NCBI GenBank assembly: GCA_016218715.1
Contig: JACRDG010000054.1
Location: forward strand, 13,940-77,939
Origin: Desulfomonile tiedjei
Lineage (GTDB): Bacteria > Desulfobacterota > Desulfomonilia > Desulfomonilales > Desulfomonilaceae
DNA: 64,000 bases
Reading direction: 5' to 3'
The position numbers and the translations under genes are program-made. Each line of letters begins with the position of its first letter. Position 1 is the stretch's first letter. The notes below the pieces were generated by a model. It was not told the DNA's origin, did no database searches, and saw only the letters and a list, made by a program, of their open reading frames with translations. Positions 9,611-54,741 of this stretch are shown in pieces.

Positions 9611-9630
9611 AATTCTTAGTCTCCTCTCCG

Positions 9631-29721: not shown

Positions 29722-29883
29722 TCACTTCTCATAACTGACTGGCGTGGCCGTGGCCGAACCCTGCTTGCTATTGTCGAGGGCTAGAGCGGCGTCCTGCAAA
29801 CACGAGGCATGATGATGGCCACTTCCATGGCTTGGGAGACAGCAGGCGGCGGTCAACTCAATTTTCACCGACTTCCTGGCCAT
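29722..29883 (-). CDS. 53-codon Cys/His-rich small ORF at the 3' end of the Mo-enzyme operon (speculative)
   Basis: My own translation: MARKSVKIELTAACCLPSHGSGHHHASCLQDAALALDNSKQGSATATPVSYEK. GGAGGT lies 5 nt before ATG 29883. The ORF starts 51 nt after the GltD-like stop. It is too short for the ORF track. Confidence 0.4.
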   Translation of the reverse strand: MARKSVKIELTAACCLPSHGSGHHHASCLQDAALALDNSKQGSATATPVSYEK

Positions 29884-29934
29884 GGAAGACCTCCATGACC
29901 AAGCTTATAGTACTGTTAGCTCCGGAACGCGACT

Positions 29935-31887
29935 CTAATATGTCTCGGCCTCAGTTGGGCGGCGGGCGCTGAAATCCGGCTGGCCGCCTGCGATTCTGGC
30001 GGCGTGGGCTATCCGCTTGCATTCGGGGCAGAGTTTTTGCCCGAGGGCTTTGTCGGGAGCCTCCACCAATCTGTTCACGTGACGCAACAGGATCGTCGGG
30101 ATATAGTGCACCCCGCACCCTTCGCACCGTTCGAGCTTTATTCGATTGATCACCGTTCCGCTCATGAGAATGAGACGCTCGCCGTCCCGGTCTTCCATCT
30201 GGAGAGCGCCCGTAGGGCAGATGTTCACACAAGACCCGCAGCCAATGCACTTCGGGAGCCCGCGCGCGTAGTCCTTCAGAATGAGCGAACTCTCCCCTGC
30301 ATGGTGGAATTTGATGGCCGATACACCGAGTCTGTCCTCGCAGACCTCTACGCATTTGCCGCATCGCTCGCAAATGTCACAGCGCATACACCGTCGGGCT
30401 TCCTGCCGAGCGGCTATCTCGTCCAGTCCCAGCTCGACCTGGTCGAAGGTGTGCATCCTCCTGTCCAAGTCTATGAGCGGGATTTCTTGGCGCTGTATAA
30501 ATGCTTTCTCGTGGTAATCCATTCGGGTCGGCGGCACCATGGTGCGGGGCCGAGGGAAGGCCTGCGCATGGAAATCCTGGCCGCGGAGGAATGCATGGAT
30601 CGCCCTGGCGGCTTTTTTACCGGCGCCGATGGCCTGGACCACCGTTGCAGGACCCGTCACCGCGTCTCCGCCGGCAAAGACGTCGCTGATGCTCGTCTGT
30701 TGATTGTGTGCTTTCACCCATATGGTCTCCCGCCGGGTGAGTTCCAGATCTCCCAGGCCAGGATAGCTGAGAACGGCAGGCTTTTGGCCTATCGCTGCTA
30801 TCACCGCTCCCACGGGCATTTTGTATTCGGACCCATCGACGGGGGTGGGTCTTCGTCGGCCGCTCTCATCCGGCTCGCCGAGCGTTGCCATGAGGCATTC
30901 CAGGGAATCGATTTTACCGAAACTTCCGAGGATCCTGGAAGGGATGGTGAGCTGATGGACATGGATCCCCTCTTCCGCCATCTGGATGATTTCCTCGAAG
31001 TGCGCGGGCATTTCGGAACGGGTGCGGCGATAGACGATGCTCACCGACTGCGAACCAAGACGCACGCACGTTCGGGCGGCATCCACAGCGGCATTGCCCC
31101 CGCCAATAATGGCCACGCTGTTCGCTGGCTTGATTTTCTTCCCCAAGGACACGTCCTTGAGGAAGTTCAAGGCACTCAACACCTGGGGGTACTCTTCTTC
31201 TCCCGGAATGGCGAGTTTAAGGCCTTCCCAGGCCCCGATACCCAGGAAAAAGGCCTTGTAACCGTCCTTTCGCAGGTGATCGAGCGTAAGATCGGAGCCA
31301 ACAGCAGTGTTGACGTTGAATTCCACTCCCATGGCGCCGATGGCCTCTATTTCCCTCCGCACCACGTGACGAGGTAACCGAAACTCCGGGATACCTGCAA
31401 TCATGAGACCGCCCGGTTCCGGCATCGCCTCGAAGACCGTCACGGGGTACCCTTCCCACGCCAGGAAATACGCAGCGGTGAGCCCGGCCGGTCCGGATCC
31501 GATAATAGCCACTTTCTCCGTGAACTTGTTCTCCGGCTCCGGAATCTTGTAGCCTCGACCCTTATCGTTGACCATCTTGGCTGCCAGGCCCTTGAGGTCC
31601 TTGATGCACAGGGATTTGTCGAGATATCGCCGCTGACACCAGGACTCACAGGGATTGGTGCAGACGAGGCCGCAGACCCAGGGAAACGGATTGTCCTGCC
31701 TGATGATCTCGATAGCCTCGTCGTACCGCCCGAGTGCTATCAGGGCCACGTACGAAGGGATGTCTATGCCTGCGGGACAGTTGATTTGGCACGGCGCCGA
31801 GGATTCACGTTTGAGGCCGTCTTCCGCGTAGACAATCCGGTCTTTGTCCGCCGCCGGTCCGGGAGAAAACAATGGGTCGACTGCCAT
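29935..31887 (-). CDS. GltD-like NAD(P)H-dependent FAD oxidoreductase with C-terminal 2x[4Fe-4S] ferredoxin domains
   Basis: ATG 31887 (AAGGAA upstream) lies 13 nt after the ferredoxin stop. GltD-type N-terminal cluster region CQINCPAGIDIPSYV...NPFPWVCGLVCTNPCESWC. Dinucleotide folds VAIIGSGPAGLTAA and VAIIGGGNAAVDAA. C-terminal motifs CMRCDICERCGKC and CIGCGSCVNICP. Confidence 0.85.
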   Translation of the reverse strand: MAVDPLFSPGPAADKDRIVYAEDGLKRESSAPCQINCPAGIDIPSYVALIALGRYDEAIEIIRQDNPFPWVCGLVCTNPCESWCQRRYLDKSLCIKDLKGLAAKMVNDKGRGYKIPEPENKFTEKVAIIGSGPAGLTAAYFLAWEGYPVTVFEAMPEPGGLMIAGIPEFRLPRHVVRREIEAIGAMGVEFNVNTAVGSDLTLDHLRKDGYKAFFLGIGAWEGLKLAIPGEEEYPQVLSALNFLKDVSLGKKIKPANSVAIIGGGNAAVDAARTCVRLGSQSVSIVYRRTRSEMPAHFEEIIQMAEEGIHVHQLTIPSRILGSFGKIDSLECLMATLGEPDESGRRRPTPVDGSEYKMPVGAVIAAIGQKPAVLSYPGLGDLELTRRETIWVKAHNQQTSISDVFAGGDAVTGPATVVQAIGAGKKAARAIHAFLRGQDFHAQAFPRPRTMVPPTRMDYHEKAFIQRQEIPLIDLDRRMHTFDQVELGLDEIAARQEARRCMRCDICERCGKCVEVCEDRLGVSAIKFHHAGESSLILKDYARGLPKCIGCGSCVNICPTGALQMEDRDGERLILMSGTVINRIKLERCEGCGVHYIPTILLRHVNRLVEAPDKALGQKLCPECKRIAHAARIAGGQPDFSARRPTEAETY

Positions 31888-31900
31888 AAGCTGTTCCTTT

Positions 31901-32413
31901 TCAGGGATTGGGCACATCCTGAGCGATTCCTCTGGCAAAACGCTCCCGCCTAGCTGCTGTGGACTCGGACGGGGAGACCCATTTGAGCGCGGCCGTCGTG
32001 CAACCGGTTACGCAAGCAGGCTCCAGTCCCTGATCGACGCGATCCTTGCAGTAGTCACATTTGAAGACGCGCCCGTGCTCTTTGTCCCACTGAGGAGCAC
32101 CCCACGGACATGCTGTAATGCATGCCTTGCATCCGATACACAGGGACGGATCCACGAAAACGATACCGTCCGCCTGGCGCTTCTGCATGGCTCCGGTCGG
32201 ACATGCTGAGACGCACCACGGCTTTTCGCAGTGAAAACACGGCATAAATATGAACTGAATTCTCGGGACGCCTTTCTGCATCTGTGGACCGACCGGAACG
32301 ATCTTGCAATAGCTCGGCCCGACCGGAACATCGTTCTGCGTCTTGCAGTGCAGCTCGCAGGCTCGGCAACCGATGCATCTGTTCTGATCCTGATATATGT
32401 AGTAGTCGCTCAT
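31901..32413 (-). CDS. 4x[4Fe-4S] ferredoxin-type electron-transfer subunit (PsrB/DmsB-like), no signal peptide
   Basis: Cys motifs CIGCRACELHC, CFHCEKPWCVSACP, CIGCKACITACP and CDYCKDR...C. AGAGGAG SD. Confidence 0.9.
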   Translation of the reverse strand: MSDYYIYQDQNRCIGCRACELHCKTQNDVPVGPSYCKIVPVGPQMQKGVPRIQFIFMPCFHCEKPWCVSACPTGAMQKRQADGIVFVDPSLCIGCKACITACPWGAPQWDKEHGRVFKCDYCKDRVDQGLEPACVTGCTTAALKWVSPSESTAARRERFARGIAQDVPNP

Positions 32414-32439
32414 ATTCGCAGCTCCTCTGTCGATGGTCT

Positions 32440-34533
32440 CTACGATACCTTGCGTACACGCACGAAACAGTCGGTCACGGGACAGTTCCCGCCGACGGCA
32501 ACCGTCAGCAGTCCCTTCATGAGGGTGTTGTCCCGCATACCCTTTCTGTAGGCCCGACTTTGCAGGGGGATCTCTCTGCCATATCCGTGGAGAGTATAGA
32601 CTGCCTCAGGATGAATCAAGTCCGTCACCGAAGCCCTGACGGTCTGGGCCACGCCTTCGGCCGACACTTCTACCAAATCACCGGTTTTTATTCCGAGCTT
32701 CCCGGCTTCAGCAGTATTCATCCACAGGGTATTCTCCGACTGCAATTCGTTCAGGTACAGATTGTTCAGTGAAGTGCCCTGCGTGTGAAGTGCGATCTTG
32801 CCGGTGACGAGGCGATAATGACCTTCAGGCGGGGTCTTGGGATTCTCATACACCGGGAATGACGCGATGCCGTTATCCTCCAGCATGGACGATTTCAGTT
32901 CTATCTTCCCTGACTTTGTCTTGAACTTCAAGCCGTCCTTGCGATCCCAGAGGATCTGCTCCCGTGAAAGTTCTATGTACCCTTTTTGGTCAAAATCATT
33001 CAGCCGGAAACCGGTATCCTTCAACTGCCAGTCGATCAGCTCTTCAATGGTGGTGTAAGGGAAGTACTCGCCGATGCCGAGACGATCCGCCAGTTGCTTG
33101 AAGATCCACCACTTGGGTTTGGTGTCGTACTTTGGTTCCACCGCCTGTCGCCGCAACCAGAGCGCGGGTTTGGGGCCGCCCTTTGCAATGACCGGGTCGG
33201 TTCTTTCCAGGTAGGTCGATTCCGGCAATATCACGTCGGAAACCCATCCGGTATGGCTGTAGTTCACATCGATGGTTACCAGCAGGTCCAGTTTCGAGAG
33301 TCCCTCAGCGAACGCCTCGGGATCGGGAAGCGCGGAGAGCGGATCGTAACGGTAGCAGATGAACGCCTTGACTGGATAGGGATCTTCGTTGAGGATCGCG
33401 TGTGGGAGCATCTGAGCCAGCCCGTAATCGGGCGAAAGATGCTTGTACTTCCACCCGACTCCGTCGAAGCGTTTCTTCTCTACTTTGGGGATGCCGGTGA
33501 CGAGTTTGCGCACGGGCTTGTACCCTGCGTCGGCCTCACTTTTGTTGAACAGAAGCCCTCCCTTCGCCTCGTACACGCCTAAGAGTGCATTAAGAATGTA
33601 AATGGATCGCCTGAAATAGTAGTCGTTCTCCGTCCAGGCGGTCATCCATCCCTGATTGAGGATTACCGCGGGACTGGCATCGGCGATCTCATGTGCGATG
33701 GTTTTGATCGCTTTTGCAGGGACCCCGGTCTCCTTTTCAGCCCACTCCGGTGTGTAGGGCTCAATGAACGAGGCCAGTTCCTTCATGCCAAGGACCCATC
33801 GCTCGACAAAATCCGCATCGTAGAGCCGTTCACTCATGAGCACCTGGATAAGAGCCAGATTGAAAGCGTAGTCCGTTCCCGGTCTGATCATGTGGAAACG
33901 GTTCGCCTTGGCCGCGGTATAGTTCCAGCGCACGTCGATGTGCGTGAACTTCATGCCTCTCTCCAGCGCGTCGATGAAGTCTTTGGCCTCTTTGGTCCCG
34001 ATCGACTCGAGGATGTTCCGGCCGTACAGAACCGCGTACTTGCAGTTTTTCCAATCGTACGCGACCGTATTTCGCCGGTGACCGGCCATGGCATTATGTG
34101 CGTTGTGCACGCTGTTGGAGCAGGAACCGTGGTGGTTGACGTAATTCGGGGAACCCAGTGCCTTAATGAACGCCTTCTGCATGTCCGTAAACGGACCGCC
34201 TCGGTCGCCAAGCACAATGCTCTCACCGCCGGAGCTTTTTCTGATTTGGTTCAGCTTCTCGGCAACGTAGTCGAGCGCCTCGTCCCACGTGGCTTTTCTC
34301 CACTTTCCGGAACCTCGATTGCCGTCTCTTATGACCGGGTGCTGCAGTCGCTCCGAATCATTCTCGAAGACCTTCCCTGCCGCTCCTCTCGGGCACAGAA
34401 ATCGCCCTCCGAGCAGGTGGGGATTCCCCCAGAGGTGCTTGACCATACCGTTTTCCACCTCAACCTCGATCGGGCAACGGACGGTGCACATGGCGCAAAC
34501 GCTGTAGACGGATGTGCTCCTGGTTTCAGACAT
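32440..34533 (-). CDS. Molybdo/tungstopterin (MopB superfamily) oxidoreductase catalytic subunit, PsrA/PhsA/acetylene-hydratase-like, cytoplasmic
   Basis: ATG 34533 (AGAGGA upstream). The N-terminus MSETRSTSVYSVCAMCTVRCPIEV carries the CxxCxxxC cluster motif directly, with no RR leader. Probable metal-ligand region HHGSCSNS. The motifs DPYPVKAF and DVILPESTYLER are shared with this clade. Confidence 0.9.
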   Translation of the reverse strand: MSETRSTSVYSVCAMCTVRCPIEVEVENGMVKHLWGNPHLLGGRFLCPRGAAGKVFENDSERLQHPVIRDGNRGSGKWRKATWDEALDYVAEKLNQIRKSSGGESIVLGDRGGPFTDMQKAFIKALGSPNYVNHHGSCSNSVHNAHNAMAGHRRNTVAYDWKNCKYAVLYGRNILESIGTKEAKDFIDALERGMKFTHIDVRWNYTAAKANRFHMIRPGTDYAFNLALIQVLMSERLYDADFVERWVLGMKELASFIEPYTPEWAEKETGVPAKAIKTIAHEIADASPAVILNQGWMTAWTENDYYFRRSIYILNALLGVYEAKGGLLFNKSEADAGYKPVRKLVTGIPKVEKKRFDGVGWKYKHLSPDYGLAQMLPHAILNEDPYPVKAFICYRYDPLSALPDPEAFAEGLSKLDLLVTIDVNYSHTGWVSDVILPESTYLERTDPVIAKGGPKPALWLRRQAVEPKYDTKPKWWIFKQLADRLGIGEYFPYTTIEELIDWQLKDTGFRLNDFDQKGYIELSREQILWDRKDGLKFKTKSGKIELKSSMLEDNGIASFPVYENPKTPPEGHYRLVTGKIALHTQGTSLNNLYLNELQSENTLWMNTAEAGKLGIKTGDLVEVSAEGVAQTVRASVTDLIHPEAVYTLHGYGREIPLQSRAYRKGMRDNTLMKGLLTVAVGGNCPVTDCFVRVRKVS

Positions 34534-34563
34534 CTTTGATTCCTCTCGCCTCATATATAGGCC

Positions 34564-35151
34564 TCAGACTGTTGTTTGTCGGTTGGTAGCCCCTAAATTC
34601 GCCGTTTCCTGAAGTCCGCGAGGATTCCCGTCAACGGAATCGAGCATTTGCTTTATCGTTCGAAAGTAAGGGAGCCGGTTTTTGACCCTCTTGAACCCGA
34701 GATAGGCGGCTGCGTAGAGGGCTATGAAAACGCAGACATAGGTTACGCTGCTTCCGGTGAACAGCAGGGGAAACTCCACGTCTGTAAAGCGGGAACCCAT
34801 CCAGGTAAGAGCGAAGAAGACGGGCCACAGAAATGCAGCGGAAAAGGCGATCTGCATGAAAAACGTCCGCCCAAAAGCGTCGTTGGCTAGTTTATTGGAA
34901 GCTTTGTAGGCAGTCTGATCACCGGCTGCTTGGGCATCTTCGGAGAGGTTCTGGTAATGAACCATCTCCTCGGTGGTCCTGTCGATGTGCTTCCGGCAGA
35001 TGAGAAATACCACCGAGATGCATAGTTCTCCAATGAGCAGGGTCACAAACGCCAGTACAAACGTCCCGATGAGAAAGTCCGGGAAAGTATGCCCGGTCAA
35101 TCGGTAGAACCAGATCACGTACGGATCGATCGCCAGGAGTATCGGGTGCAT
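34564..35151 (-). CDS. Integral membrane protein of unknown function (195 aa, ~4 TM)
   Basis: GAGGA SD. Hydrophobic helices flank a polar loop (TEEMVHYQNLSEDAQAAGDQTAYKASNKLAND). Confidence 0.7.
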   Translation of the reverse strand: MHPILLAIDPYVIWFYRLTGHTFPDFLIGTFVLAFVTLLIGELCISVVFLICRKHIDRTTEEMVHYQNLSEDAQAAGDQTAYKASNKLANDAFGRTFFMQIAFSAAFLWPVFFALTWMGSRFTDVEFPLLFTGSSVTYVCVFIALYAAAYLGFKRVKNRLPYFRTIKQMLDSVDGNPRGLQETANLGATNRQTTV

Positions 35152-35176
35152 GGTGTTTCCTCGTGATCGTGATCGC

Positions 35177-35212
35177 GCCGGTCACTGAGTCCTCTCAGGC
35201 TCAGTGACCGGC
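35177..35212 (-). other. Perfect 13-bp stem-loop between the permease and the membrane-protein gene
   Basis: GCCGGTCACTGAG - 10 nt - CTCAGTGACCGGC. It begins 11 nt after the TauE stop and ends 25 nt before the next ATG. There is no U-tract. Confidence 0.55.
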
Positions 35213-35222
35213 CGCAATCCGC

Positions 35223-36389
35223 TTAGAGTCCGGGGAGTGAAAAGTCGAAGAACCCGCGAAGAGTGTACCCGATACCCACGTATAGGGCAAGCACCACGAA
35301 GAGCCGCTTCAACCATATGTCCGGGATCTTTTTCGACGTCATGGGTCCCAACACGGAACCGATGGCGATTCCCACGAGTTCGATGCCAATAAACATCAGG
35401 TCGGCCGGAACATTCTTGACGAACATGTACGACAGGATCGAGCTGATCATGCCGACGAGAACCGCGAGTGCCGAGGTTCCTGCCACGATGTACATCGGGA
35501 GGCCCGCCACTGATGTCAGGTAGGGAACATACAGAAAGCCGCCACCCACTCCGATAAAGGACGAGATTGCATTGATGAAGAACCCCCCGATCAAGGCCAG
35601 AACCGGGCTGAAGCCGAACTCGACACCGTAGAAGGTAAATGTGGTGCGGCTCAGGCCCCATTGCTTGACGCGGACGCCCATGTCAGTACTCATGGCGCCG
35701 CTACCGGTGCTGCCCTTCTTGATGTGCTCTTTCTCAAAGGCCGCGGCCGCTTCCTTTGCCGCCTTCTTGCTGGCCTGTCCTCTAGGAGTCGTATCATAGA
35801 AAAGGAATCCACCGATCACCAGGACCGTAATTCCGAAGTACCCCACATATTGGCTGAGCTGGATCTTGCCTGCAGTCAACACCGGAATGAGCACACCTGC
35901 AGCGATCCCGCCCACCGCGAGACAGATGCCCAGCGGAAGGACCAGCCGGCCCATCCGATAGTACGTTGCCGAGGAGATCAACGCTGACAAGCCCACCAGG
36001 TATTGATTGCTCATCCGGATGGAATCCGTGAGCAGCTTGTTGAGTGCGGGGTTGGTCTTCTTGAAGGTCTTGGCGTAGTCTCCCAACCCGAATACCGTGA
36101 TGTGGCCCACTCCCGCCATGATGCCGCCGAACGCGCCCACGGTGGAAAAGATCCAGCCGACCCAGATCCCCCAGACAATCCCTAAGAGCCAAAATGGCCT
36201 CGCTCCACCCGGGATTCCCAGGAACCCTGGTTCACCTTTGGGGTCAATCATCCCCGGGCCTGTGCCCTGAGGGGTACTGGCGATGGCGTCTTGTAGTTTG
36301 TCCGCGGCCGCTGGGCTCGCGAGGAGTACGGTGCTCATGACAGCGACTGCTGCCACCAGCCCCAATATAACCCAGTTGTTTTGCTTCAT
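35223..36389 (-). CDS. TauE/SafE (TSUP) family anion permease, 388 aa, with N-terminal signal/anchor
   Basis: GGAGGT SD. Two TSUP half-domains with Gly-rich helices (FSTVGAFGGIMAGVG; SFIGVGGGFLYVP) are separated by a Lys/Ala-rich cytoplasmic loop. Confidence 0.8.
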   Translation of the reverse strand: MKQNNWVILGLVAAVAVMSTVLLASPAAADKLQDAIASTPQGTGPGMIDPKGEPGFLGIPGGARPFWLLGIVWGIWVGWIFSTVGAFGGIMAGVGHITVFGLGDYAKTFKKTNPALNKLLTDSIRMSNQYLVGLSALISSATYYRMGRLVLPLGICLAVGGIAAGVLIPVLTAGKIQLSQYVGYFGITVLVIGGFLFYDTTPRGQASKKAAKEAAAAFEKEHIKKGSTGSGAMSTDMGVRVKQWGLSRTTFTFYGVEFGFSPVLALIGGFFINAISSFIGVGGGFLYVPYLTSVAGLPMYIVAGTSALAVLVGMISSILSYMFVKNVPADLMFIGIELVGIAIGSVLGPMTSKKIPDIWLKRLFVVLALYVGIGYTLRGFFDFSLPGL

Positions 36390-36434
36390 CGGTACCTCCG
36401 TGTTCTCGTATGCCTATATCTTCCACCGGGACGT

Positions 36435-36827
36435 TTAGCCGTCCGGCATCAGTGCTTCAGATTCTTCGTCCTGCTTCTTTGACGCGAGCAGCTCGCGAAC
36501 CTTCGTCTCGATCGTGTCCAACTCCACAGGCCTGAGGAGATAATCGTCGGCGATTCCATGTTCACCGGTTTCCGCACTCGCGCAGCACGTGAGGGCGAGA
36601 ACTTTCACCCCGTGCCTCACCTTTTTCAAAGGGGCCGCAAGCCTCAGGCTCTCGTGCCGCGACTTTCGGACTTCCAGCACCACGAGATCGGGAGCCAGAG
36701 AACTTGCCCTCTCCACGGCCTCATGGTAGTCGCTGCAGGTGAACACCCGGTGCCCATCTCTCTCCAGGACACGCTTGAGCAAGGTTGCCGAATCCTGTTC
36801 CTCATCAACGACTAGAATGATGGCCAA
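36435..36827 (-). CDS. Stand-alone receiver-fold protein with Glu at the phospho-acceptor position (pseudo-receiver)
   Basis: TTG start with GGGGA 6 nt upstream. ILVVDEEQD, then DLVVLEV where canonical receivers have D-L-x-x-x-D. YLLRP replaces the conserved K-P. Confidence 0.75.
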   Translation of the reverse strand: MAIILVVDEEQDSATLLKRVLERDGHRVFTCSDYHEAVERASSLAPDLVVLEVRKSRHESLRLAAPLKKVRHGVKVLALTCCASAETGEHGIADDYLLRPVELDTIETKVRELLASKKQDEESEALMPDG

Positions 36828-36889
36828 GGCATGTCCCCGATCTTGCAGTCACCGCCGGCCGAGAATCCGGCCGCTTGTCATGGTCCAGA

Positions 36890-36904
36890 GCAACGACCGT
36901 GCCA
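36890..36904 (-). promoter_or_regulatory. Sigma54 (-24/-12) promoter
   Basis: The minus strand reads TGGCACGGTCGTTGC, matching TGGCAC-N5-TTGC exactly. It lies 63 nt upstream of the first start codon and directly downstream of an NtrC-family activator gene. Confidence 0.7.
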
Positions 36905-37138
36905 CGAACGCGGACGAGGCGCAAGATCGGATAATTATTTGAATTACTGGCTTTTTTTCGTAAGGAGCGGTTCAGATCTGGGGAGGGCAATCGGATTCAG
37001 CTCGCGCGGGCGCAAGGAAAGTGTGGCACCTCGCGGATCGGCCAAGAAATATCGTCAACAAGATAAATGTGTTAAGCATTCCAAGGAAAAAAGTTGCACT
37101 GCAATAGTTTCCGTGCACCGGCGGCGGTCTTTCCGGTC

Positions 37139-38551
37139 CTAGTCTTCCTCTGTTTGGAATTCACGGGAGGTGATGCCGTAGCGTCGCATAACCTGCTGGA
37201 GCGCCTGGCGTTCCAGGCCGCATTCCCGCGCCGCTTTGGTAACGTTGCCGTGGTTTCGCGCGAGTACGTCTGACAGATACTGGCTGTGGAAGCGCTCGAG
37301 CACCTGCACCTTGGCTTCCTTATAGGGGAGGAGGCCGACGGTATTGGGCACGAGGCACCCTTTCTCCGCGACAGCCTCCCAGCCGACGTCTTCGGGCCTG
37401 ATTTCGGGGCTCGGCGAGAGGAGGACGGCCCGACTGAGCACGTTTTCCAATTCCCGTACGTTTCCGCGCCACGCGTGGTTCATAAATCGGCTCATCAGCT
37501 CGGGCGTTACGGTCATGGAGCGTTTCTTGAATTCCTGGCAAAACCTTTTCAGAAAGTGTTCCACCAGCAGAGGAATATCCTCGGTTCGTTCCCGTAGAGG
37601 CGGCATGTGGATCGCTACCACGTTCAGGCGATAGAACAAATCCTCACGAAAGAGATTCTCCTGTATTTTCGTGCCGAGATCCTGATTGGTGGAGGCAATG
37701 ATGCGGACGTCCACTTTGATACTCTTGGTCTGTCCCAGCGGACGAATTTCTTTCTCCTGCAGCACGTGGAGGAGCTTGGTCTGCAAGGTAGGGGAAATGT
37801 CCCCGATCTCGTCGAGGCATATGGTCCCTCCCTGCGCTTCCCAAAAGAGTCCTCGCTTGTCTGACGTGGCATGCGTGAACGCTCCTTTTCGATGTCCAAA
37901 CAGTTCGCTTTCGAGGATATTCTCCGGGAGGTTGGGGCAATTCACCGCCAGGAAGGGCATCCGGCTGCGAAGACTCAGATCGTGAATGGCCCGCGCTGCC
38001 AGATCTTTGCCCGTCCCCGATTCACCGGTGATGAGGACCGTGACATCGGTCTTGGCGATGAGCCGTATCATCTCAAAGACTCGTTGCATTTTGGGGCTAG
38101 CACCGACCATTTCCTGGAAGCGTTCCTGCTCTTCGATGCGGCGGTGCAGGAGGAGATTCTCCCGAACCAGCCGGCTCCGTTCCATGGCTTTGCCCAGGAG
38201 GTGGACGAGCTTGTTCAGTTCGAAGGGTTTGGCAATGAAGTCGTACGCTCCCTCTTTGATGGCCTTTACGGCCAGGTCTATGGAGCCGTAGGCGGTCATC
38301 AAGACCACAGTCAGTCCCGGATACCCGCGAGTGACTTTCTCCAGGAATTCCATACCGTCCATTCCCGGCATGCGAATGTCCGCCAGGACCACGTCAAAGA
38401 GAGAGGCTTCCAGGATTTCCAGGGCTCGATATGCATTGGACGCGGTCTCAACCTCGCAATCGAGGTCCGGCGGGAGGCTGCGTTTCAGGAGCCTCAGCAT
38501 ATCTTCTTCGTCGTCCACGACGAGCAGTCTCGATTTGGCAGTTTCCGTCAT
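37139..38551 (-). CDS. Sigma54-dependent response regulator (NtrC family: REC-AAA+-HTH)
   Basis: Receiver LLVVDDEED...ADIRMPGMDG. AAA+ motifs GESGTGKDLAARAIH and ESELFGHRKGAFTHA (GAFTGA-type loop). C-terminal Fis-type HTH GNVTKAARECGLERQAL. Confidence 0.92.
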   Translation of the reverse strand: MTETAKSRLLVVDDEEDMLRLLKRSLPPDLDCEVETASNAYRALEILEASLFDVVLADIRMPGMDGMEFLEKVTRGYPGLTVVLMTAYGSIDLAVKAIKEGAYDFIAKPFELNKLVHLLGKAMERSRLVRENLLLHRRIEEQERFQEMVGASPKMQRVFEMIRLIAKTDVTVLITGESGTGKDLAARAIHDLSLRSRMPFLAVNCPNLPENILESELFGHRKGAFTHATSDKRGLFWEAQGGTICLDEIGDISPTLQTKLLHVLQEKEIRPLGQTKSIKVDVRIIASTNQDLGTKIQENLFREDLFYRLNVVAIHMPPLRERTEDIPLLVEHFLKRFCQEFKKRSMTVTPELMSRFMNHAWRGNVRELENVLSRAVLLSPSPEIRPEDVGWEAVAEKGCLVPNTVGLLPYKEAKVQVLERFHSQYLSDVLARNHGNVTKAARECGLERQALQQVMRRYGITSREFQTEED

Positions 38552-40101
38552 GTGGATGGCCCGGGCCCTTCGGAGGTGGAAACGCTCTGAGGTGGTGTGC
38601 CCATTGTAACCGGGAGCACTACGGTGAACGTGCTGCCGCTGTCGACCTCGCTGTGCGCTTCAATCAGCCCGTTGTGATCCTGAATGATCCCGTAGCTGAC
38701 CGACAAGCCCAATCCGGTACCTTCGCCCACCGGCTTGGTGGTGAAGAACGGATCGAAGATTTTGTCTATCAGTTCGTCAGGAATCCCGCACCCGGTGTCC
38801 CTGATGGATATGCGGAGGCACTGCTCGGCAGGGTCCGCCTTGGTGGCCACGGAGATGCTGCCACTGCCTTGAATGGCTTGCCGTGCATTCATCAGGAGAT
38901 TCATGATGACTTGCTTGAGTTTCTCGCCGTCAGCGACGAGTGTGGGCAGGTCCGGATCCAGGTCGGTCTCCAGGGTGATCTTGTCGAGTTCGAATTGATG
39001 GGACACGAGCGAAAGTACTTCCTGCACGCACTGATTGACCTCGATGGAGGTCTTGTTCGTTCTCGTTCCGCGAGCGAATTTCAGGAGGTCATCCACGACG
39101 GTCTTGCAATTGCGCGCGTGTTTTTCAATGATTTTGAGGTCCTCGTAAACCTGAGTACCCTCAGTGTTCTCTCTGAGAAGCAACTGGGTGTACCCCAGCA
39201 TCACACCGAGCGGATTGTTGATTTCGTGCGCGATACCCGTTGAGATCTGTCCGAGCGAGGCGAGTTTGTCGGCCCGCTGAAGCTGTTTTTCCATGAGGAG
39301 TCTGGCCGTCAGGTCTTTGGCGATCCCTTCATATCCGGTTATTCCGCTCTGCCCGTCGGTACGGGCCGTGGCGCTGAGGAGCACGAAGAGTTCCGACCCC
39401 TGGTTCGATCGCAGACGGCACTCCCGGTCCCGGACGAACCCGTTCGTGCGAAGTTCGTTCATCAAACCGATGTAGTCGGGTTCGTGGACAAAGAAGCTGC
39501 GGAAATCGAGCACTCCGACCAGTTCTTCCTTGGCCGCATAGCCCAGTGAAGTCAATCCGGCGTTGTTTATGTCGACAAAGCGAGCGTCTCCGTCCAGGAT
39601 GAATATCATGTCCATGGAACCCTCGAAGACGCGACGATACTTTTTCTCGGAGCGACTCAGTTCCTCGGTTCGCTGTCTCACCAGGGACTCGAGATTCCGG
39701 TTGAGACGCATGACCTCTTGCCCCGCGTCCTCGAGAGCACGCTTGTCCTGGAGTATTCCCGCGTTGATCTTATCGACCCGCTGAAAAAAGAGGGTGATGG
39801 CCGCCACCACCACGAACGCGAGCGTATTGAAGGCACCGCTGTACGGGCGGAGCGCTACCCACACATCGGGCATATCGAGGAGGAGCAGAAAACGCTTTGC
39901 TATATGACCGACGGATCGGGAAACCGCGAATACCGCCAAGGCCGCAGAAAACCAGAGGATATACGTCCACATGGCATTGGTGGGCTGTGCTTTGACCAGA
40001 CGCCGAGCATACCATACCGCAGCGAACGAGAGGACCACCATAGTGGCGGCCCCAAAAACGTCCACAAACCATACCGGAGCCATGGAATAGGAATCACTCA
40101 T
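38548..40101 (-). CDS. Membrane-bound PAS sensor histidine kinase
   Basis: N-terminal TM helices, a PAS module ([22 protein letters not shown]), H-box [10 protein letters not shown], and ATPase motifs [24 protein letters not shown]. The stop overlaps the regulator ATG (ATGA). The start (ATG 40101, or TTG 40122) overlaps the upstream gene. Confidence 0.85.
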
Positions 40102-40630
40102 GAGGTCGTTCCGCCTCCGCAAGCACTTTTTTGTAAAGCGACCGGAGTCCGAGGACGAGGCAGAGGATTGCGGGCACGCACAAGAGATGATCCAGTTTCA
40201 GGATAAAGTAGACCACAGCCCAAGGACTGGCACCCGTATCGAGGCGCTGGGTCCAACCCGGGTGACCCCGGATCATATTGGCCGAAATCAGCTCTTCCAC
40301 CCAGTGCCCGGAAAAGGCCACGACGTTCCAGGCGATGAATAGCACGCATGAGATTTGGATAAGCCGCCACCCGGTTTGATCGGTGAGGCGATTCCGGTGC
40401 AGCCAGTACACAAGGATACCCATTGATGCGGCGAAATACACGTGCGCGAGCTGATGGGCGTAGAGCCCTTCTGGCGCGGGATGGGACTGGAAGGCCCAGG
40501 CAAAGTCCGCACTCCCTGACAGACTCGCGACGGAGGCCAACAAAAAGAATCCGAGACCTCTGGATTTCCTGTGCGATGAGGGGGTTTTCTCGGGAGACGG
40601 CGGTTCCATGTGGGTCGGTCGATCTGTCAT
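40094..40630 (-). CDS. His-rich 4-TM membrane protein co-transcribed with the kinase
   Basis: 178 aa. Signal-like GLGFFLLASVASLSGSADFAWA. HPAPEGLYAHQLAHVYF and several TM segments. I recognise no family. Confidence 0.6.
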   Translation of the reverse strand: MTDRPTHMEPPSPEKTPSSHRKSRGLGFFLLASVASLSGSADFAWAFQSHPAPEGLYAHQLAHVYFAASMGILVYWLHRNRLTDQTGWRLIQISCVLFIAWNVVAFSGHWVEELISANMIRGHPGWTQRLDTGASPWAVVYFILKLDHLLCVPAILCLVLGLRSLYKKVLAEAERPHE

Positions 40631-49571: not shown

Positions 49572-49688
49572 TAAGAGTCTCCGCTCCCTCCGGGAGGGGG
49601 ACAGGGTGAGGGCATCAGGATTCCTCGTTGGACAGAACGATCGTAAGAAGCCCTCGCTGCGGTGCCAGGGTGTTGGATAGGGGGACTC

Positions 49689-51254
49689 ATGGATCTTACG
49701 GATCGAAAGCAGGAGAAACCGGTCGCAGTGGCCGAAAGCCACGTACCCGATCTGAAGGTTTCCCGCCAGGGCTGCCTTGCAGAACAACCGCCGGAGCCGT
49801 GCATCATAGTCATTTTCGGCGTCACCGGAGACCTGGCTTCACGGAAACTCGCTCCTGCTTTTTACAAATTGTATTTGTCGGGTGGTCTCCCGTCTCGGTT
49901 TGCAATAGTAGGGTGTGCGCGTCACCCGATGGATCACGATCAGTTCAGAGAGCACATCAAGAAAGCAGTCGGGGAGTCCGATAAAGCTCGGTGGGAGGAA
50001 TTTGCCGCGTCTCTTTTCTATCACCGACTTCACTTCGACTCGGCAGATTCATATGCCGAACTTGGGGAAATGTTGCATGCGCTGGATGAACAGCATTCGC
50101 TGGGCGGCAATAAGATATTCTATTTGGCGGTGCCTCCGTCGCTGTACAAGGATACCGCGCGGATGCTGGGTGAGGCGGGCTTTTCCCGGGAAGGTGTCGG
50201 CGGCAACGGATGGGCGAGACTGGTGGTGGAGAAGCCGTTTGGGCGGGATCTGCCAACGGCCGTGGACCTGAACGTCAGCCTTCAACAGCACTGGCAAGAG
50301 CGCCAGATCTTCAGAATAGATCATTACATTGCCAAGGAGACCGTCCAGAATGTACTTATGTTTCGCTTCGCCAACACCATTTTCGAACCTCTGTGGAACC
50401 GTATGTTCATAGATCGCGTCTTCATTAGTGCAGCCGAGTCTCTGGGAGTGGAGAAGCGGGCCGCGTACTACGAAGACGCGGGTGTCTTGCGGGATATGTT
50501 CCAGAACCACATGATGCAACTGCTCGCGGTGACCGCCATGGAGCCCCCTTCCCGCTTCGAGGCAGAACCGGTGAGAGATGAAAAATCCAAGGTGTTCGGC
50601 TGCTTGATGCCTTTCCAGCTCGGCTCTATCGACGAAAACCTCGTCCTGGGCCAATACGGTCCGGGGACGATAGACGGCATCCAAGTTCCCGGATATCGGG
50701 AGGAGCCGGGAGTGAACTCGGAGTCTGCCACACCAACGTTTGCGATGATGAGAGTTTTCGTGGGCAACTGGCGCTGGGAAGGGGTTCCCTTTTACCTCAT
50801 GTCCGGGAAGAGGCTCGAGCGGAAGGTGACGGAGATCGTAATCCACTTCAAACAGGTTCCGCACCTCCTCTTCACGAGGGTGCTGGAAGACAGGATCACC
50901 CCGAACGTTTTGACCCTGGGTATTCAGCCGGATGAAAAGATAACCCTGACGTTTGAGACGAAGAACCCCGGGGCGACCATCTGCCTCCGGTCGGTCACTA
51001 TGGACTTCAATTACGCGCAGAATTATGGCGGCCCGACCCTGGATGCTTACGAAAAAGCGCTCCTTGACTGCATGCAGGGCGATCAAACCCTATTATGGAG
51101 ACAGGACGCCGTGGAAATGTGCTGGTCCTTTCTCGACCCGGTTCTGGAATGGTGCGAGACGTGCGCGCCCGAGGAACGGTGCCTGTTGCCCTATGAGGCA
51201 GGGAGTTGGGGACCGGAGACAGCGGAAATATGGCCGAATCGACGGACGCGGTGA
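49689..51254 (+). CDS. zwf: Glucose-6-phosphate 1-dehydrogenase
   Basis: ATG 49689 follows AGGGGGA. Motifs IFGVTGDLASRKL, RIDHYIAKE and LRDMFQNHMMQLL. Confidence 0.92.
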   Translation: MDLTDRKQEKPVAVAESHVPDLKVSRQGCLAEQPPEPCIIVIFGVTGDLASRKLAPAFYKLYLSGGLPSRFAIVGCARHPMDHDQFREHIKKAVGESDKARWEEFAASLFYHRLHFDSADSYAELGEMLHALDEQHSLGGNKIFYLAVPPSLYKDTARMLGEAGFSREGVGGNGWARLVVEKPFGRDLPTAVDLNVSLQQHWQERQIFRIDHYIAKETVQNVLMFRFANTIFEPLWNRMFIDRVFISAAESLGVEKRAAYYEDAGVLRDMFQNHMMQLLAVTAMEPPSRFEAEPVRDEKSKVFGCLMPFQLGSIDENLVLGQYGPGTIDGIQVPGYREEPGVNSESATPTFAMMRVFVGNWRWEGVPFYLMSGKRLERKVTEIVIHFKQVPHLLFTRVLEDRITPNVLTLGIQPDEKITLTFETKNPGATICLRSVTMDFNYAQNYGGPTLDAYEKALLDCMQGDQTLLWRQDAVEMCWSFLDPVLEWCETCAPEERCLLPYEAGSWGPETAEIWPNRRTR

Positions 51255-51305
51255 GCGTGTTTTAAGCGCTCGCCCTTCCTTTGGTACAGGCCGAGAGGGG
51301 GGCAT

Positions 51306-53327
51306 GTGAACTCGGAAGAACTGGATCGGTTGTGTATCGATACATTACGCTTTCTGGCTGTAGATGCGGTGCAGAAGGCTGAATCGGGGCATCCCGGATT
51401 GCCGCTCGGATCCGCGCCCATGTTCTATGTCGTGTGGGATCGGTTCCTCAAATACAACCCGGAAAATCCGCAATGGCCCAACAGGGATCGATTCGTTCTC
51501 TCCGCGGGCCATGGGTGTGCGTTACTCTACGCGATGCTGCATGTGGCCGGGTTTGATCTGTCTCTGGAAGAACTGCAGCGATTTCGCCAGTGGGAGAGCC
51601 GAACGCCAGGTCACCCCGAATACGGGAAGACCCCGGGGGTTGAAGCCACCACGGGTCCTCTCGGGCAGGGGCTTGCTAATGCCGTCGGTATGGCCATAGC
51701 TGAGACGGCCCTTGCCGCGCGCTTTAACCGGCCGGATTTTGCGATAGTCGACCATTACACGTACGTGGAAGCGAGCGACGGCGACCTCATGGAAGGGGTC
51801 TCCTCGGAAGCAGCCTCTTTGGCCGGGCACTTACGACTGGGCAAGCTCATCGTGCTCTACGACGACAATCATATCAGCATCGAAGGCAGCACAAACCTGG
51901 CATTTACCGAGAATCGGGTCGCACGCTTTGCCGCGTTCGGATGGCACGCCCAGCAAGTGGCCGACGGAAACGAACTTCCCGCAATCCACGCCGCTCTGGA
52001 AGCTGCCCGCGAAAACAGGGATCAACCCTCCTTTATCGCCGTGCACAGCCATATCGGATTCGGCAGTCCGCACAAGCAGGATACCGCCGAGGCTCATGGC
52101 GAGCCTCTGGGAGAGAAAGAAGTCCGTCTGACAAAATTGAACCTCGGGTGGCCCACAGAGCCGCCCTTTTACGTTCCCGACGAAGCGCGGGATCATTTTC
52201 GGCAGGCAATCGATCGCGGGAAAAGGCACCAGGCCGAATGGGAAAGCCTCTTTCAAAGCTATTCGGATCGACATCCCGAACTGGCTGCCAAATTTCATCG
52301 AGTGATGCAGCGAAAACTTCCCGCCAACTGGGACAGCCGTGTTCCGAAATTTACCGTGGATCAGGGGCCGATGGCGACCCGCGTGGCTTCCGGAAAGGCA
52401 CTCAATGCAATCGCTCCTTTCTTGCCCGAACTGATGGGTGGCTCGGCAGATCTGGCCCCCAGCACCAAAACTCTTATGGCAGGCGCGGGTGACTTTGAGG
52501 CAGACGACCGTTTCGCGCGAAATATTCACTTTGGCGTCCGTGAACACGCAATGGGAAGCATTGCCAATGGGCTGGCGCTGCATGGCGGCATCATTCCCTA
52601 CGCCGCGACGTTTCTCATTTTCAGCGATTACATGCGGCCCCCCATCCGCCTTGCCGCCTTGACCGATCTCCACGTCATCTACGTCTTTACCCATGACAGT
52701 ATCGGGCTGGGCGAAGATGGTCCCACGCATCAGCCTGTCGAGCAATTGCTGGGGCTGCGAGCCATTCCGAACATGGTCGTCATTCGTCCCGCGGACGCCA
52801 ACGAAACGGCAGCAGCGTGGAGGATTGCCATTCAGCGACCCGGACCGGTCGCTCTGGCGCTGACCCGGCAGAATTTGCCGGTCCTGGACTCGGCTATTTA
52901 TGCCGGCGTCCTCGAAGGGGTTCAGCGTGGCGGATACCTCCTCGCTGAAGCGCCAAATGGCGGCAGGCCGGACATCGTGCTGGTCGCGTCCGGATCGGAA
53001 GTCCACCTGGCGATCGAGGCCCGAGAGAAGTTGCTCCAAGACGGTGTACGTTGCCGAGTGGTGAGCCTCCCCAGTTGGAACCTGTTTGACGAACAGAGCG
53101 AGGAATATCGCAGCGGTCTGTTCCCGTCGGATGTGCCGGTCCTCGCGATCGAGGCGGGAGTCTCTCTCGGATGGAGGCCGTATCTGGGGCGAGGCGTTGA
53201 CGTCATCGCTGTGGACCGCTTCGGGGCTTCAGCTCCAGGGAAAAAGAATATGCAGGAATATGGCTTTACCGTGGAGAACATCTGCGAACGGGCCTTCAAA
53301 TTGCTGAAGCACTCTCAGAAAACATGA
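51306..53327 (+). CDS. tkt: Transketolase
   Basis: Motifs [34 protein letters not shown] and [19 protein letters not shown] start after GAGAGGGGGG. Confidence 0.95.
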
Positions 53328-53484
53328 GGGGCGGTAACATGGAGGTATCCGTTTACCGGGTCAACGGTAGTCCCGCGAAATCACGATGGGGGAGGTTTGG
53401 AGGGGGAGATGGTCTCTCCCTCCATCCTCACCGGTCGCAGAGCCGCCTCAAGCCCGGTGAACGATTACAAATGGAGGAACATGA

Positions 53485-54609
53485 ATGAGCAATAATCCGT
53501 TACTCAAGATACAGGGATTTGGCCAGAGCATCTGGCTGGATTTCATCAGCCGGAACATGCTGACGTCGGGCGAACTCAAGCGACTCATCGAAGACGACGG
53601 ATTGCGGGGGGTCACGTCCAATCCTGCCATTTTCGAGAAGGCGATAACCGGCAGCAACGATTACCAGCCCGCGATCGTTTCCCTGGCTCGGGAAGGCAAA
53701 CGACCTGAAGAGATCTACGAGGTCCTGGCGATTGACGACGTCCGGCAAGCTGCTGACAGCTTTCAAGGCGTCTTCACCTCATTGAACGGCAGCGACGGCT
53801 TTGTGAGCCTGGAGTGTTCACCCGATCTGGCGCGCGACACCGAGGCAACCATTCAGGAGGCCCGTCATTTGTGGGCCGCTCTGGACAGACCGAATGTTTT
53901 CATCAAGGTCCCCGGCACGAAGGAAGGCCTCCCGGCCATCCGGAAACTCATCAGCGAAGGGATCAACGTGAATGTGACGTTGCTCTTCGGCCTGGACCGA
54001 TACCGCGAGGTAGCCGAAGCCTATATAGCAGGTCTCGAAGACCGCGTGGCTGCCGGGCGTCCAGTGGACCACGTGGCATCCGTAGCGAGTTTCTTCCTCA
54101 GTCGGATCGATCTGCTGGTCGACCCCGTGCTCGAAGAGGTGATAAACAAGGGAGGGCCGCAGGGTGAAGTGGCAAATCTCGCCCATGGCGAGGTCGCGAT
54201 AGCAAGCGCGCGGGTCGCCTATCAGATCTACAAAGAGGTGATCTCGGGCGAAAGATTTCGCAAGCTGGCTGACAGAGGGGCGCGGCCGCAACGGGTGCTC
54301 TGGGCGAGCACGAGCACCAAGAATCCAGCGTACAGCGACATCAAATACGTCGAAGCCCTTATCGGCCCGGAAACGGTCAATACCCTCCCCCAGGAAACCC
54401 TGAACGCGTATCGCGATCACGGCAAGCCGGCTGCTCGGCTTGAACAAGGCCTAGAACAGGCCAGGCAGGTCCTGGACCGTTTGCCCGAAGTCGGCATCGA
54501 CCTGGGGAAGGTAACCCAGCAACTGGAAGACGAGGGGATCGAAAAATTCAGCAAGCCGTTCCACACGTTGCTGCAGGCGCTCGACAAGATCCGGAGAGAG
54601 GCTTTGTAA
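53485..54609 (+). CDS. tal: Transaldolase (long, ~370-aa type)
   Basis: GGAGGA SD. Motifs GQSIWLDFISR, GVTSNPAIFEKAI and FIKVPGTKEGLPAI. Confidence 0.9.
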   Translation: MSNNPLLKIQGFGQSIWLDFISRNMLTSGELKRLIEDDGLRGVTSNPAIFEKAITGSNDYQPAIVSLAREGKRPEEIYEVLAIDDVRQAADSFQGVFTSLNGSDGFVSLECSPDLARDTEATIQEARHLWAALDRPNVFIKVPGTKEGLPAIRKLISEGINVNVTLLFGLDRYREVAEAYIAGLEDRVAAGRPVDHVASVASFFLSRIDLLVDPVLEEVINKGGPQGEVANLAHGEVAIASARVAYQIYKEVISGERFRKLADRGARPQRVLWASTSTKNPAYSDIKYVEALIGPETVNTLPQETLNAYRDHGKPAARLEQGLEQARQVLDRLPEVGIDLGKVTQQLEDEGIEKFSKPFHTLLQALDKIRREAL

Positions 54610-54741
54610 GTCCGATAGTTCGAGAGGCAATGCTCGCGGCTGAGGTATCCGTGCGGAAAACTTCCAAGCCGCGCTTGAAAAGAGGGCAATCCATTTGAGC
54701 CCTCTCAGAACACTTGTAACGGGAGGGGTGGAGGAGTTTCC

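Follow-up and report, generated by a model that had tools for sequence, protein, structure and literature searches.

This study addresses a gene cluster on the minus strand of a 64-kb stretch of DNA from Desulfomonile tiedjei (contig JACRDG010000054.1), which was analysed at its full length and is referred to here as the window. The effector genes of the cluster encode a molybdenum or tungsten (Mo/W) catalytic subunit of the MopB type, an iron-sulfur (FeS) subunit, a flavoprotein, and a TauE-family permease with a small companion membrane protein. We regard the chances as about even that these genes represent an NADPH-dependent cytoplasmic thiosulfate/polysulfide reductase. Measurements of thiosulfate reductase activity in the cytoplasm of sulfate reducers go back decades, and we know of no PhsAB-type enzyme without a membrane subunit that has been characterised. 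A cytoplasmic thiosulfate reductase has long been sought in sulfate reducers and sulfur disproportionators, and the predicted enzyme is a good candidate for this role. Its uncharacterised cytoplasmic PhsAB-like core is already known. What appears undescribed in the literature searched is the coupling of this core to an NADPH-specific flavoprotein of the DsrL/NfnL type, its adjacency to a TauE pair, and its dedicated sensor, sigma-54 promoter and operator.

We infer a soluble, cytoplasmic three-subunit oxidoreductase, composed of MopB, a PsrB-like FeS subunit and the flavoprotein. NADPH would be oxidised at the flavin adenine dinucleotide (FAD) of the flavoprotein, and the electrons would pass through the clusters of this protein to the four PsrB-like clusters, then to the FS0 cluster of the catalytic subunit, and finally to a Cys-ligated Mo/W-bis(pyranopterin guanine dinucleotide) (bisPGD) centre. 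This centre would cleave the S-S bond of thiosulfate, yielding sulfide and sulfite, or that of polysulfide. The permease and its 195-aa partner would move a sulfur oxyanion across the membrane, either thiosulfate inward or sulfite outward. The sigma-54 promoter would be switched on by an NtrC-type activator at a TTGCA-N-TGCAA site, with the activator under an intramembrane PAS kinase that works with a His-rich membrane protein and responds to a presumed signal.

The locus, together with about two dozen like it in six phyla, names a concrete candidate donor, which is NADPH through a DsrL/NfnL-type flavoprotein. It also names a dedicated permease pair, sensor, promoter and operator, so that a vague annotation becomes a three-subunit enzyme and regulon that can be tested directly. 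Additionally, it forms a link between genuine Mo enzymes and the MopB domain that has degenerated in the Nfn/Stn transhydrogenases, and two membrane protein families without assigned function emerge from it, namely the His-rich co-sensor and the TauE companion. The initial annotation of this DNA knew of no characterised enzyme with the same subunit set, and this is borne out by family, structure and literature searches, as none combining MopB, FeS subunit, flavoprotein and TauE was found in NCBIfam, among the PDB matches or in the literature. On the flavoprotein-linked variant, DVU0173 and Dde_1076, nothing was found in the literature beyond one paper (PMC4215793).

The catalytic subunit and its leaderless clade

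The catalytic subunit is encoded at 32440..34533 (minus strand, as are all the cluster genes described below). The N-termini of homologues fix its start at Met8 of the open reading frame (ORF) 32440-34554, giving the 697 aa first proposed. In the Pfam and NCBIfam profile searches, which were used for all domain calls, Molybdop_Fe4S4, Molybdopterin and Molydop_binding all score above their Pfam cut-offs, and the cluster motif CAMCTVRC occupies residues 13-20. The protein matches PsrA of Thermus thermophilus (PDB 2vpw) over its full length, with E 1e-118. In the phmmer alignment to 2vpw, the Cys of its HHGSCSNS motif falls on the Cys of SLCTAP in PsrA, and this residue (C138) is invariant in homologue alignment A1.

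The twin-arginine translocation (Tat) motif RRxFL is absent from the window protein, in which just 12 residues precede the first cluster Cys. Homologues were surveyed by scanning one genome per species, which produced 80 loci (numbered with the prefix L). All homologues of at least 40% identity start 8-15 residues before the motif YSxCxMCxVRC and are without a twin-arginine motif. At 35-37% identity, the relatives (Thermaceae, Geothrix, Anaerolineae and others) have an RRxFL leader, and their Cys motif is not the same. A phylogenetic placement of the 697-aa subunit had been called for, and a neighbour-joining tree now puts it among the leaderless proteins, which form one monophyletic clade. 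The subunit had been described as leaderless, and without RRxFL it must be cytoplasmic. The lack of a leader and the clade grouping together place it, as judged from sequence, in a distinct cytoplasmic branch of the PsrA/PhsA group. No NrfD-type membrane subunit was matched by Pfam or NCBIfam among the ten ORFs of the cluster; the two membrane proteins of the effector unit are the TauE permease and the three-helix 195-aa protein. The PhsAB of Desulfurella amilsii was considered as the closest described relative and was ruled out by the Tat signal on that enzyme.

The initial annotation had assigned the subunit to a PsrA/acetylene-hydratase clade. One rival reading makes it an enzyme like acetylene hydratase, pyrogallol transhydroxylase or resorcinol hydroxylase, which would perform a non-redox or hydroxylating reaction on an organic substrate, with the flavoprotein only keeping the metal reduced. 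The three enzymes named likewise belong to the wider PsrA-like group and are cytoplasmic, and acetylene hydratase (2e7z) is the second-best solved match, at E 1.5e-54. However, this match is partial and 64 orders of magnitude weaker than that to PsrA, while pyrogallol transhydroxylase reaches just E 1.6e-11 over ~100 residues. The residue after the second cluster Cys is Thr in the window (CAMCTVRC) and Asp in acetylene hydratase (CQSCDINC), and we take this Asp to be the catalytic Asp13. Because the window protein is without it, the acetylene-hydratase half of the label is not apt, and the PsrA/PhsA half stands. Moreover, the cluster holds no catabolic genes for aromatics or acetylene, and the TauE association points to an inorganic or sulfonated anion. 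A hydratase or transhydroxylase function is, in our view, barely credible.

Electron partners and substrate

The FeS subunit (31901..32413; 170 aa, without a signal peptide) is of the PsrB/DmsB four-cluster type, with Fer4_11 at E 2.8e-25, TIGR02951 at 150 bits, and 17 Cys in four cluster motifs. The flavoprotein gene follows at 29935..31887. Its start at 31887 is again set by homologue N-termini, within an ORF (29935-31938) that opens with TTG and counts 667 aa, and the resulting 650 aa agree with the length first given. In the numbering of the 667-aa ORF, Fer4_20 covers residues 47-124, Pyr_redox_2 142-440, and Fer4_21 with Fer4_7 521-609. The order along the protein is an N-terminal 2x[4Fe-4S] part, FAD/NAD(P) Rossmann folds, a linker, a C-terminal 2x[4Fe-4S] part and a terminal CxxC...CxxC. 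Its best solved relatives are NfnA of the C. saccharolyticus NfnABC complex (9bov, 4e-119) and StnA (8oh5, 2e-110), followed by NfnB (4ylf, 5e-89) and GltD. The protein had been called a GltD-like NAD(P)H flavoprotein; it is plausible as an NAD(P)H input module, but it is closer to DsrL/NfnL than to GltD proper. Since its gene does not lie beside dsrAB and follows MopB and FeS instead, it is named DsrL/NfnL-like rather than DsrL.

The flavoprotein carries a YRR motif (VYRRTRSEMPA, after GGGNAAVDAAR), which is kept in 25 of 32 partner flavoproteins. YRR is a mark of NADP(H) specificity in NfnB and DsrL-2, as reported in the study that also defined the domain order of DsrL (PMC7596348). The motif thus points to NADPH rather than NADH as the probable nucleotide. 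In NfnABC, NADPH is oxidised at an NfnL-like FAD domain at the end of the cluster chain, and the FAD module forms one polypeptide with an Fdh/MopB-like domain from which the pterin site has been lost (PMC11829005). The fusion of this module to a MopB-like domain in NfnA and StnA provides an argument that the module works with MopB.

Gene neighbourhoods were counted by tblastn with the window proteins and by clustering of all locus ORFs, across 43 leaderless loci with complete flanks and 15 Tat-type loci. The FeS gene is adjacent to MopB in both sets (36/43 leaderless, 13/15 Tat-type). The flavoprotein gene adjoins 23 of the 43 leaderless genes and none of the 15 Tat-type genes, and for TauE the figures are 19/43 and 1/15, so the co-occurrence of MopB, a GltD-like protein and the permease, for which a neighbourhood search had been proposed, is a recurring one. 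The gene of the 195-aa protein is adjacent in 9/43 and 1/15 loci, and the kinase and NtrC-type activator genes in 9/43 each, these two not being counted for the Tat-type set. The order MopB-FeS-flavoprotein, with a 13-nt spacer in the window, recurs across six phyla (Desulfobacterota, Bacillota, Actinomycetota, Chloroflexota, Acidobacteriota and Betaproteobacteria) and never stands beside Tat-type relatives. The full effector set with an NtrC-type activator is also present in L011 (Desulfobacteraceae), in L030, and in the Desulfobacca loci L035 and L058.

These counts bear on the alternative that the flavoprotein is an independent NADPH:ferredoxin-type oxidoreductase, merely co-transcribed, and that the Mo enzyme is fed by ferredoxin or another carrier. 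The Desulfovibrionaceae loci hold just TauE, the 195-aa protein, MopB and FeS, and D. tiedjei DSM 6799 also has MopB-FeS with TauE and without the flavoprotein. The electron partner is swapped within the leaderless clade, in which several subclades have the flavoprotein. Nevertheless, the three-gene order in 23 loci of six phyla, its absence from Tat-type relatives, and the fusion in NfnA and StnA all argue for a shared function, and we consider an independent flavoprotein improbable.

In a sister subclade, MopB-FeS lies directly upstream of an 11-subunit nuo operon without nuoEFG (T. acidiphilum, Caldimicrobium and Desulfobulbales), a linkage already recorded for Thermodesulfovibrio N1 (PMC5165239). 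The window MopB groups with these nuo-linked members, at 59% identity to that of T. acidiphilum and 54% to that of Caldimicrobium. The arrangement is seen at L001:10001-22085 and also in L005, L012, L024, L033, L038, L039, L021 and L052, where the pair is placed as if replacing the NADH-oxidising module. In Desulfobaccales (L030:12737-16129; L035:12800-16198; L027:2890-6285; L058 and L031), the partner flavoprotein is a 1130-aa fusion of an N-terminal NuoF-like part (Complex1_51K, SLBB, NADH_4Fe-4S), an NfnL/GltD-like part and a ferredoxin domain. This is a Bfu-like make-up beside a real Mo enzyme, and electron bifurcation is a possibility there. Ten Desulfobacterales loci (L008, L009, L015, L016, L018, L019, L022, L023, L029 and L077) have three conserved genes 3' of the flavoprotein gene. 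One encodes a 70-aa protein (MxFRRGQKVE...PDALIEVSL.GKGTHRxPQDCL), unrelated to the 53-codon ORF that follows the flavoprotein gene in the window; it occupies this place in Desulfobacterales loci alone. The others encode a CBS-pair protein and a 253-aa 2Fe-2S/2x4Fe-4S protein, with a terminal CxxC...CxxC as in the window flavoprotein.

Thiosulfate is the most likely substrate, judging from the proteomics and fitness measurements published on relatives. In Dissulfuribacter thermophilus, a cytoplasmic PhsAB-like pair is more abundant in thiosulfate disproportionation than with sulfite + H2, with a log2 fold change of 2.5-3.5, and a TauE and 'co-occurring transmembrane protein' pair is likewise up (PMC13490349). 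In D. alaskensis G20, mutants in PhsAB are least fit on lactate/thiosulfate (PMC4215793). Homologues are found in thiosulfate disproportionators, including the cultured thiosulfate disproportionator D. tiedjei DSM 6799, which has the regulator-transporter-MopB-FeS layout.

The thermodynamics can be read both ways, and several further points weigh against a thiosulfate reductase. The thiosulfate/(HS- + HSO3-) couple lies at -402 mV and NADPH at -320 mV, and the transfer from NADPH to thiosulfate is endergonic under standard conditions. With a couple this low, a low-potential donor or product removal is needed. We infer that NADPH is sufficient as long as the levels of sulfite and sulfide stay low, and a sulfite exporter or DsrAB would see to this; the alternative partners of the clade, the NADPH flavoprotein and an 11-subunit Nuo run by proton-motive force, both fit a low-potential couple. 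The best NCBIfam match of MopB, the PhsA equivalog NF012032, reaches 550.6 bits and stays below its cut-off of 694, its best stretch spanning residues 5-535 only. The phenotype of the G20 mutants is mild (PMC4215793). Desulfolithobacter cells that disproportionate thiosulfate contain little of their PhsAB-like proteins, and the same study emphasises that no functional analysis of PhsAB exists (PMC9751629). In the literature, no biochemical or genetic test of any member with a flavoprotein partner was found. DITHS69_2028 of D. thermophilus and Dde_1076 of G20 are assigned to the clade by description (no Tat, no PhsC, nuo synteny) and by the annotation of Desulfovibrionaceae proteins. A search from a Desulfovibrio homologue listed many Desulfovibrionaceae 'thiosulfate reductase' proteins, and DITHS69_2028 and the G20 protein were not among them. 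Lastly, sulfur respiration is not known from soil Actinomycetota, Chloroflexota and Rhodocyclaceae, in which the clade is likewise present, and the substrate cannot be read from the sequences of PsrA-family enzymes, which are promiscuous (PMC13047784).

The soil occurrence and the promiscuity also favour a different acceptor reduced with NADPH, such as tetrathionate, selenite or selenate, arsenate, or an S- or N-oxide, for detoxification or assimilation, with TauE carrying the anion. NADPH specificity is typical of assimilatory or detoxifying enzymes, and the flavoprotein scores 361 bits against the model of YgfK, a putative selenate reductase subunit. In L006, L035 and L058, a 317-aa lipoprotein is encoded beside the activator gene. 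It is a PhnD-type periplasmic oxyanion-binding protein that weakly resembles the periplasmic part of TtrS, a tetrathionate sensor (E 2.4e-8); the window has no such gene. On the other side, the MopB matches to the ArrA, TtrA, DmsA, YnfE/F and NasC models are far weaker than that to PhsA, and the sole experimental hints for the clade concern thiosulfate. Another acceptor is held to be unlikely, if a competitor to be taken seriously.

The same proteins could also run in the oxidative direction, as a cytoplasmic sulfite dehydrogenase (sulfite + NADP+ -> sulfate + NADPH) that resembles SoeAB but has no membrane anchor. Such an enzyme would account for the 'sulfite oxidoreductase' activity reported for disproportionators, with TauE exporting sulfate or importing sulfite. 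The sulfate/sulfite couple, at -516 mV, could reduce NADP+, and in the sister subclade the enzyme could feed the 11-subunit Nuo, which would then run forward and pump protons. The TauE family bears the name of a sulfite exporter, and the clade is common in disproportionators. However, PsrA and PhsA, the closest characterised relatives, cleave S-S bonds and perform no oxygen-atom transfer. The D. thermophilus pair reaches far higher levels on thiosulfate than on sulfite + H2, a condition that involves sulfite disproportionation too (PMC13490349), and the G20 phenotype is specific to thiosulfate (PMC4215793). We find a sulfite dehydrogenase quite unlikely and keep the NADPH-dependent thiosulfate/polysulfide reductase as the preferred reading.

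A wider proposal is offered tentatively, and with considerable doubt. The leaderless PhsAB-like enzymes may be modular cytoplasmic sulfur-oxyanion reductases, in which a Mo-FeS core is combined with swappable low-potential modules: an NADPH flavoprotein, a NuoF-fused and possibly bifurcating one, or a Nuo without NuoEFG. The window would then hold the missing NADPH:thiosulfate oxidoreductase that starts thiosulfate reduction or disproportionation. It would be of the functional ancestor type of the pterin-less MopB in Nfn/Stn, and it would be governed by a new His-rich sensor.

Transport, regulation and gene layout

The permease gene (35223..36389) encodes a 388-aa protein of the TSUP/TauE anion permease family, which matches Pfam TauE over residues 72-373 with 65.1 bits against a cut-off of 32.6, and has an N-terminal signal/anchor and a long central loop. 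Its companion, the three-helix membrane protein of 195 aa (34564..35151), has no family in Pfam or NCBIfam at E 0.01. The companion gene comes after TauE in 17 loci, and in Desulfobulbales its homologue (hhalign probability 92%) is a 213-aa protein encoded after the long TauE; in L039 and L045, this protein counts 213-215 aa. Both proteins share a topology of TM1, a long helical hairpin, TM2 and TM3 (TM, transmembrane helix), and the topology with sub-threshold similarity recalls the EMC3/TMCO1 (DUF106) family. That assignment was set aside, as the matches are weak and below threshold. A fold assignment was likewise abandoned; a single-sequence AlphaFold2 model has a predicted local distance difference test score (pLDDT) of 66, and the matches, with a best Foldseek E of 0.2, are meaningless.

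The sensor genes lie upstream of the effector genes. The first (40094..40630) encodes a His-rich membrane protein of 178 aa, with a signal/anchor helix and three TM helices, as a putative kinase co-sensor. It has no Pfam or NCBIfam family and 102 homologues, all annotated as hypothetical, in which Q48, H50, P53, E54, G55, H59, H63, W101, N102, H109, D147 and H148, thus five His, are invariant. Its AlphaFold2 model (pLDDT 83.6) has no fold relative in the PDB (best E 0.31). The gene is directly upstream of the kinase gene in L015, L019, L021, L033, L039, L045 and L083, and it always stands immediately 5' of a PAS kinase gene of the intramembrane type. The membrane PAS histidine kinase of the window (38548..40122; PAS, HisKA, HATPase_c) has four N-terminal hydrophobic helices and is without a periplasmic domain; its orthologues in nine related loci have 34-43% identity. 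The NtrC-type sigma-54 activator (37139..38551) combines a receiver, an AAA+ domain and a Fis-type helix-turn-helix (Response_reg; Sigma54_activat, E 3e-67; HTH_8). Its loop reads GAFTHA instead of GAFTGA, a feature common to the L011 and L017 orthologues. As first described, the starts and stops of these genes overlap: the activator start shares 4 nt (ATGA) with the kinase stop, and the ORFs of the His-rich protein and the kinase overlap.

A gap of 311 bp separates the activator gene from the receiver gene. Within it, TGGCACGGTCGTTGC at 36890..36904 is a predicted sigma-54 -24/-12 promoter element, 62 nt upstream of the start of the receiver gene. Searched as TGGCAC-N5-TTGC, which holds the GG-N10-GC element, it is the sole exact match in 64 kb (expected 0.11), in agreement with the first report of an exact element. 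Elements of this type with at most one mismatch stand upstream of TauE, receiver or MopB genes in L002, L011, L015 (twice), L017, L023 and L030. L039 and L045 have one ahead of the His-rich gene, and D. tiedjei DSM 6799 (L083) has one ahead of the receiver gene.

The putative upstream activator site, at 37094..37118, consists of a half-site GTGCAC, then the palindrome TTGCA-N-TGCAA, then a T run, and the stretch to which the activator would bind is TTGCAGTGCAA. The dyad TGCAC-N13-GTGCA noted earlier is present at 37095-37117 and overlaps the palindrome, but it is not the conserved element, the core of which is TTGCA-N-TGCAA. The palindrome has one exact copy in the window (37094-37104; expected 0.11), and in 1.4 Mb of window and locus sequence there are 3 exact copies, each upstream of the receiver or MopB gene of the cluster. 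TGCA-rich dyads lie 130-230 nt upstream of the -24 element in L002, L011, L015, L017, L039, L045 and L083, and in D. tiedjei DSM 6799, ATTGCACCTGCAA stands just 3' of the activator stop codon. The conserved operator, as predicted here, is better described by the palindrome than by the N13 dyad. The recurrence of both promoter and operator motifs in related loci lends support to the proposed sigma-54/NtrC control.

The single-domain receiver protein (36435..36827; Response_reg, E 2.6e-12) carries Glu where the phospho-acceptor is expected and Arg in place of the conserved Lys. The Glu had been noted before and is real, but it is not a family trait. Since all seven aligned homologues keep Asp and Lys, the change is a local degeneration, and the window protein is probably a non-phosphorylatable or decaying copy.

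The ten minus-strand ORFs run consecutively from 40630 to 29722, all at the coordinates first listed, and nine of them are backed by domains and conservation. The exception is the 53-codon Cys/His ORF at 29722..29883, a doubtful gene with a GGAGG site 6 nt upstream of its ATG. It has no Pfam or NCBIfam family, and relaxed tblastn found no homologue 3' of the flavoprotein gene in any related locus. Being without a counterpart there, it is unsupported as the tenth gene, is ruled out as a conserved small subunit, and is not counted in the system. The initial annotation proposed one sigma-54 operon of ten genes; the proposed sigma-54 control finds comparative support, but two transcription units, one of sensor genes and one of effector genes read from the sigma-54 promoter, are more likely than a single operon. 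Terminator and sigma-70 scans of the region gave hits no more numerous than in shuffled sequence, and the 64-kb window has no Rfam matches or tRNA genes.

The locus of D. tiedjei DSM 6799 (L083; CP003360.1 2072574-2093047) repeats the sensor trio, gap, receiver, TauE and 195-aa gene of the window. Identities to the window are 73% for TauE, 56% for the 195-aa protein, 63% for the kinase and 44% for MopB. The flavoprotein gene is absent at this locus; 3' of the FeS gene come a 77-codon ORF and then, at ~0.75 kb, a DDE transposase gene. The redox module of this strain appears exchanged or truncated. By this comparison, the regulatory and transport genes behave as one module and the redox genes as another.

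Neither flank of the cluster is related to it: a convergent HEAT-repeat gene borders one end, and a GlgB-like gene the other. Further away, ~9 kb from the operon, a complete oxidative pentose phosphate cluster at 49662-56157 (+) encodes glucose-6-phosphate dehydrogenase, transketolase, transaldolase and 6-phosphogluconate dehydrogenase, a source of NADPH. An aldehyde:ferredoxin oxidoreductase-family tungsten enzyme is encoded at 7505-9655 (-), and two very large multi-PAS hybrid histidine kinases, of 1682 and 1046 aa, at 805-5853 (-) and 58372-61512 (+).

Comparison with known systems

The window system shares with PsrABC of Thermus thermophilus (2vpw) and PhsABC of Salmonella the three-domain Mo-bisPGD subunit, the FS0 cluster, the Cys metal ligand and a four-cluster B subunit. 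However, PsrABC and PhsABC have a Tat leader and an NrfD/PsrC anchor that oxidises quinol, whereas the window has neither and has an NADPH flavoprotein in the place of the anchor. With both Tat export and the anchor missing, the system fails two defining features of the respiratory enzymes. The first Cys motif also differs, being YSxCxMCxVRC in the window clade and CEMCxWRC or CENCFWKC in the PsrABC/PhsABC type.

Leaderless PhsAB-like enzymes without PhsC are known from the genomes and proteomes of disproportionators and Desulfovibrio (PMC13490349, PMC9751629, PMC5165239, PMC4215793). These cytoplasmic pairs (DITHS69_2028/2027; GF1_30490/30500; THER_0567/0568; Dde_1076/1075) have a leaderless A and a B subunit and no C, as in the window, to which they are likened by description and synteny. 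They stand alone or upstream of an 11-subunit nuo. GF1_30490/30500 of Desulfolithobacter adjoin nuoB, like the pairs of L033 and L039, and THER_0567/0568 of Thermodesulfovibrio N1 are linked to nuo (PMC5165239). In D. thermophilus, the TauE and its partner membrane protein are co-regulated with the PhsAB-like pair (PMC13490349). The literature searched on such pairs makes no mention of an NADPH flavoprotein partner, TauE adjacency or a sensor/sigma-54 module.

The flavoprotein has a domain order identical to that of DsrL, in which the NAD(P) domain is embedded in the FAD part and the linker measures about 100 aa, and it has the YRR of the NADP(H)-specific DsrL-2 (PMC7596348). It differs from DsrL in being encoded beside a Mo enzyme and not dsrAB, in its extra terminal CxxC...CxxC, and in having NfnA, StnA and NfnB as its best solved relatives. 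Among the Bfu-family transhydrogenases NfnABC and StnABC, the NfnL-like FAD domain that oxidises NADPH is its best structural relative. In NfnA, this domain is fused to a pterin-less MopB-like domain, called an evolutionary remnant, whereas the window MopB is a separate protein with all cofactor-binding domains, and the window has no NuoE/NuoF-like subunits. Lastly, acetylene hydratase of Pelobacter acetylenicus (2e7z) is, like the window MopB, cytoplasmic and leaderless, with the same spacing of the FS0 motif; it is without an FeS or flavoprotein partner, whereas the window MopB has both genes adjacent.

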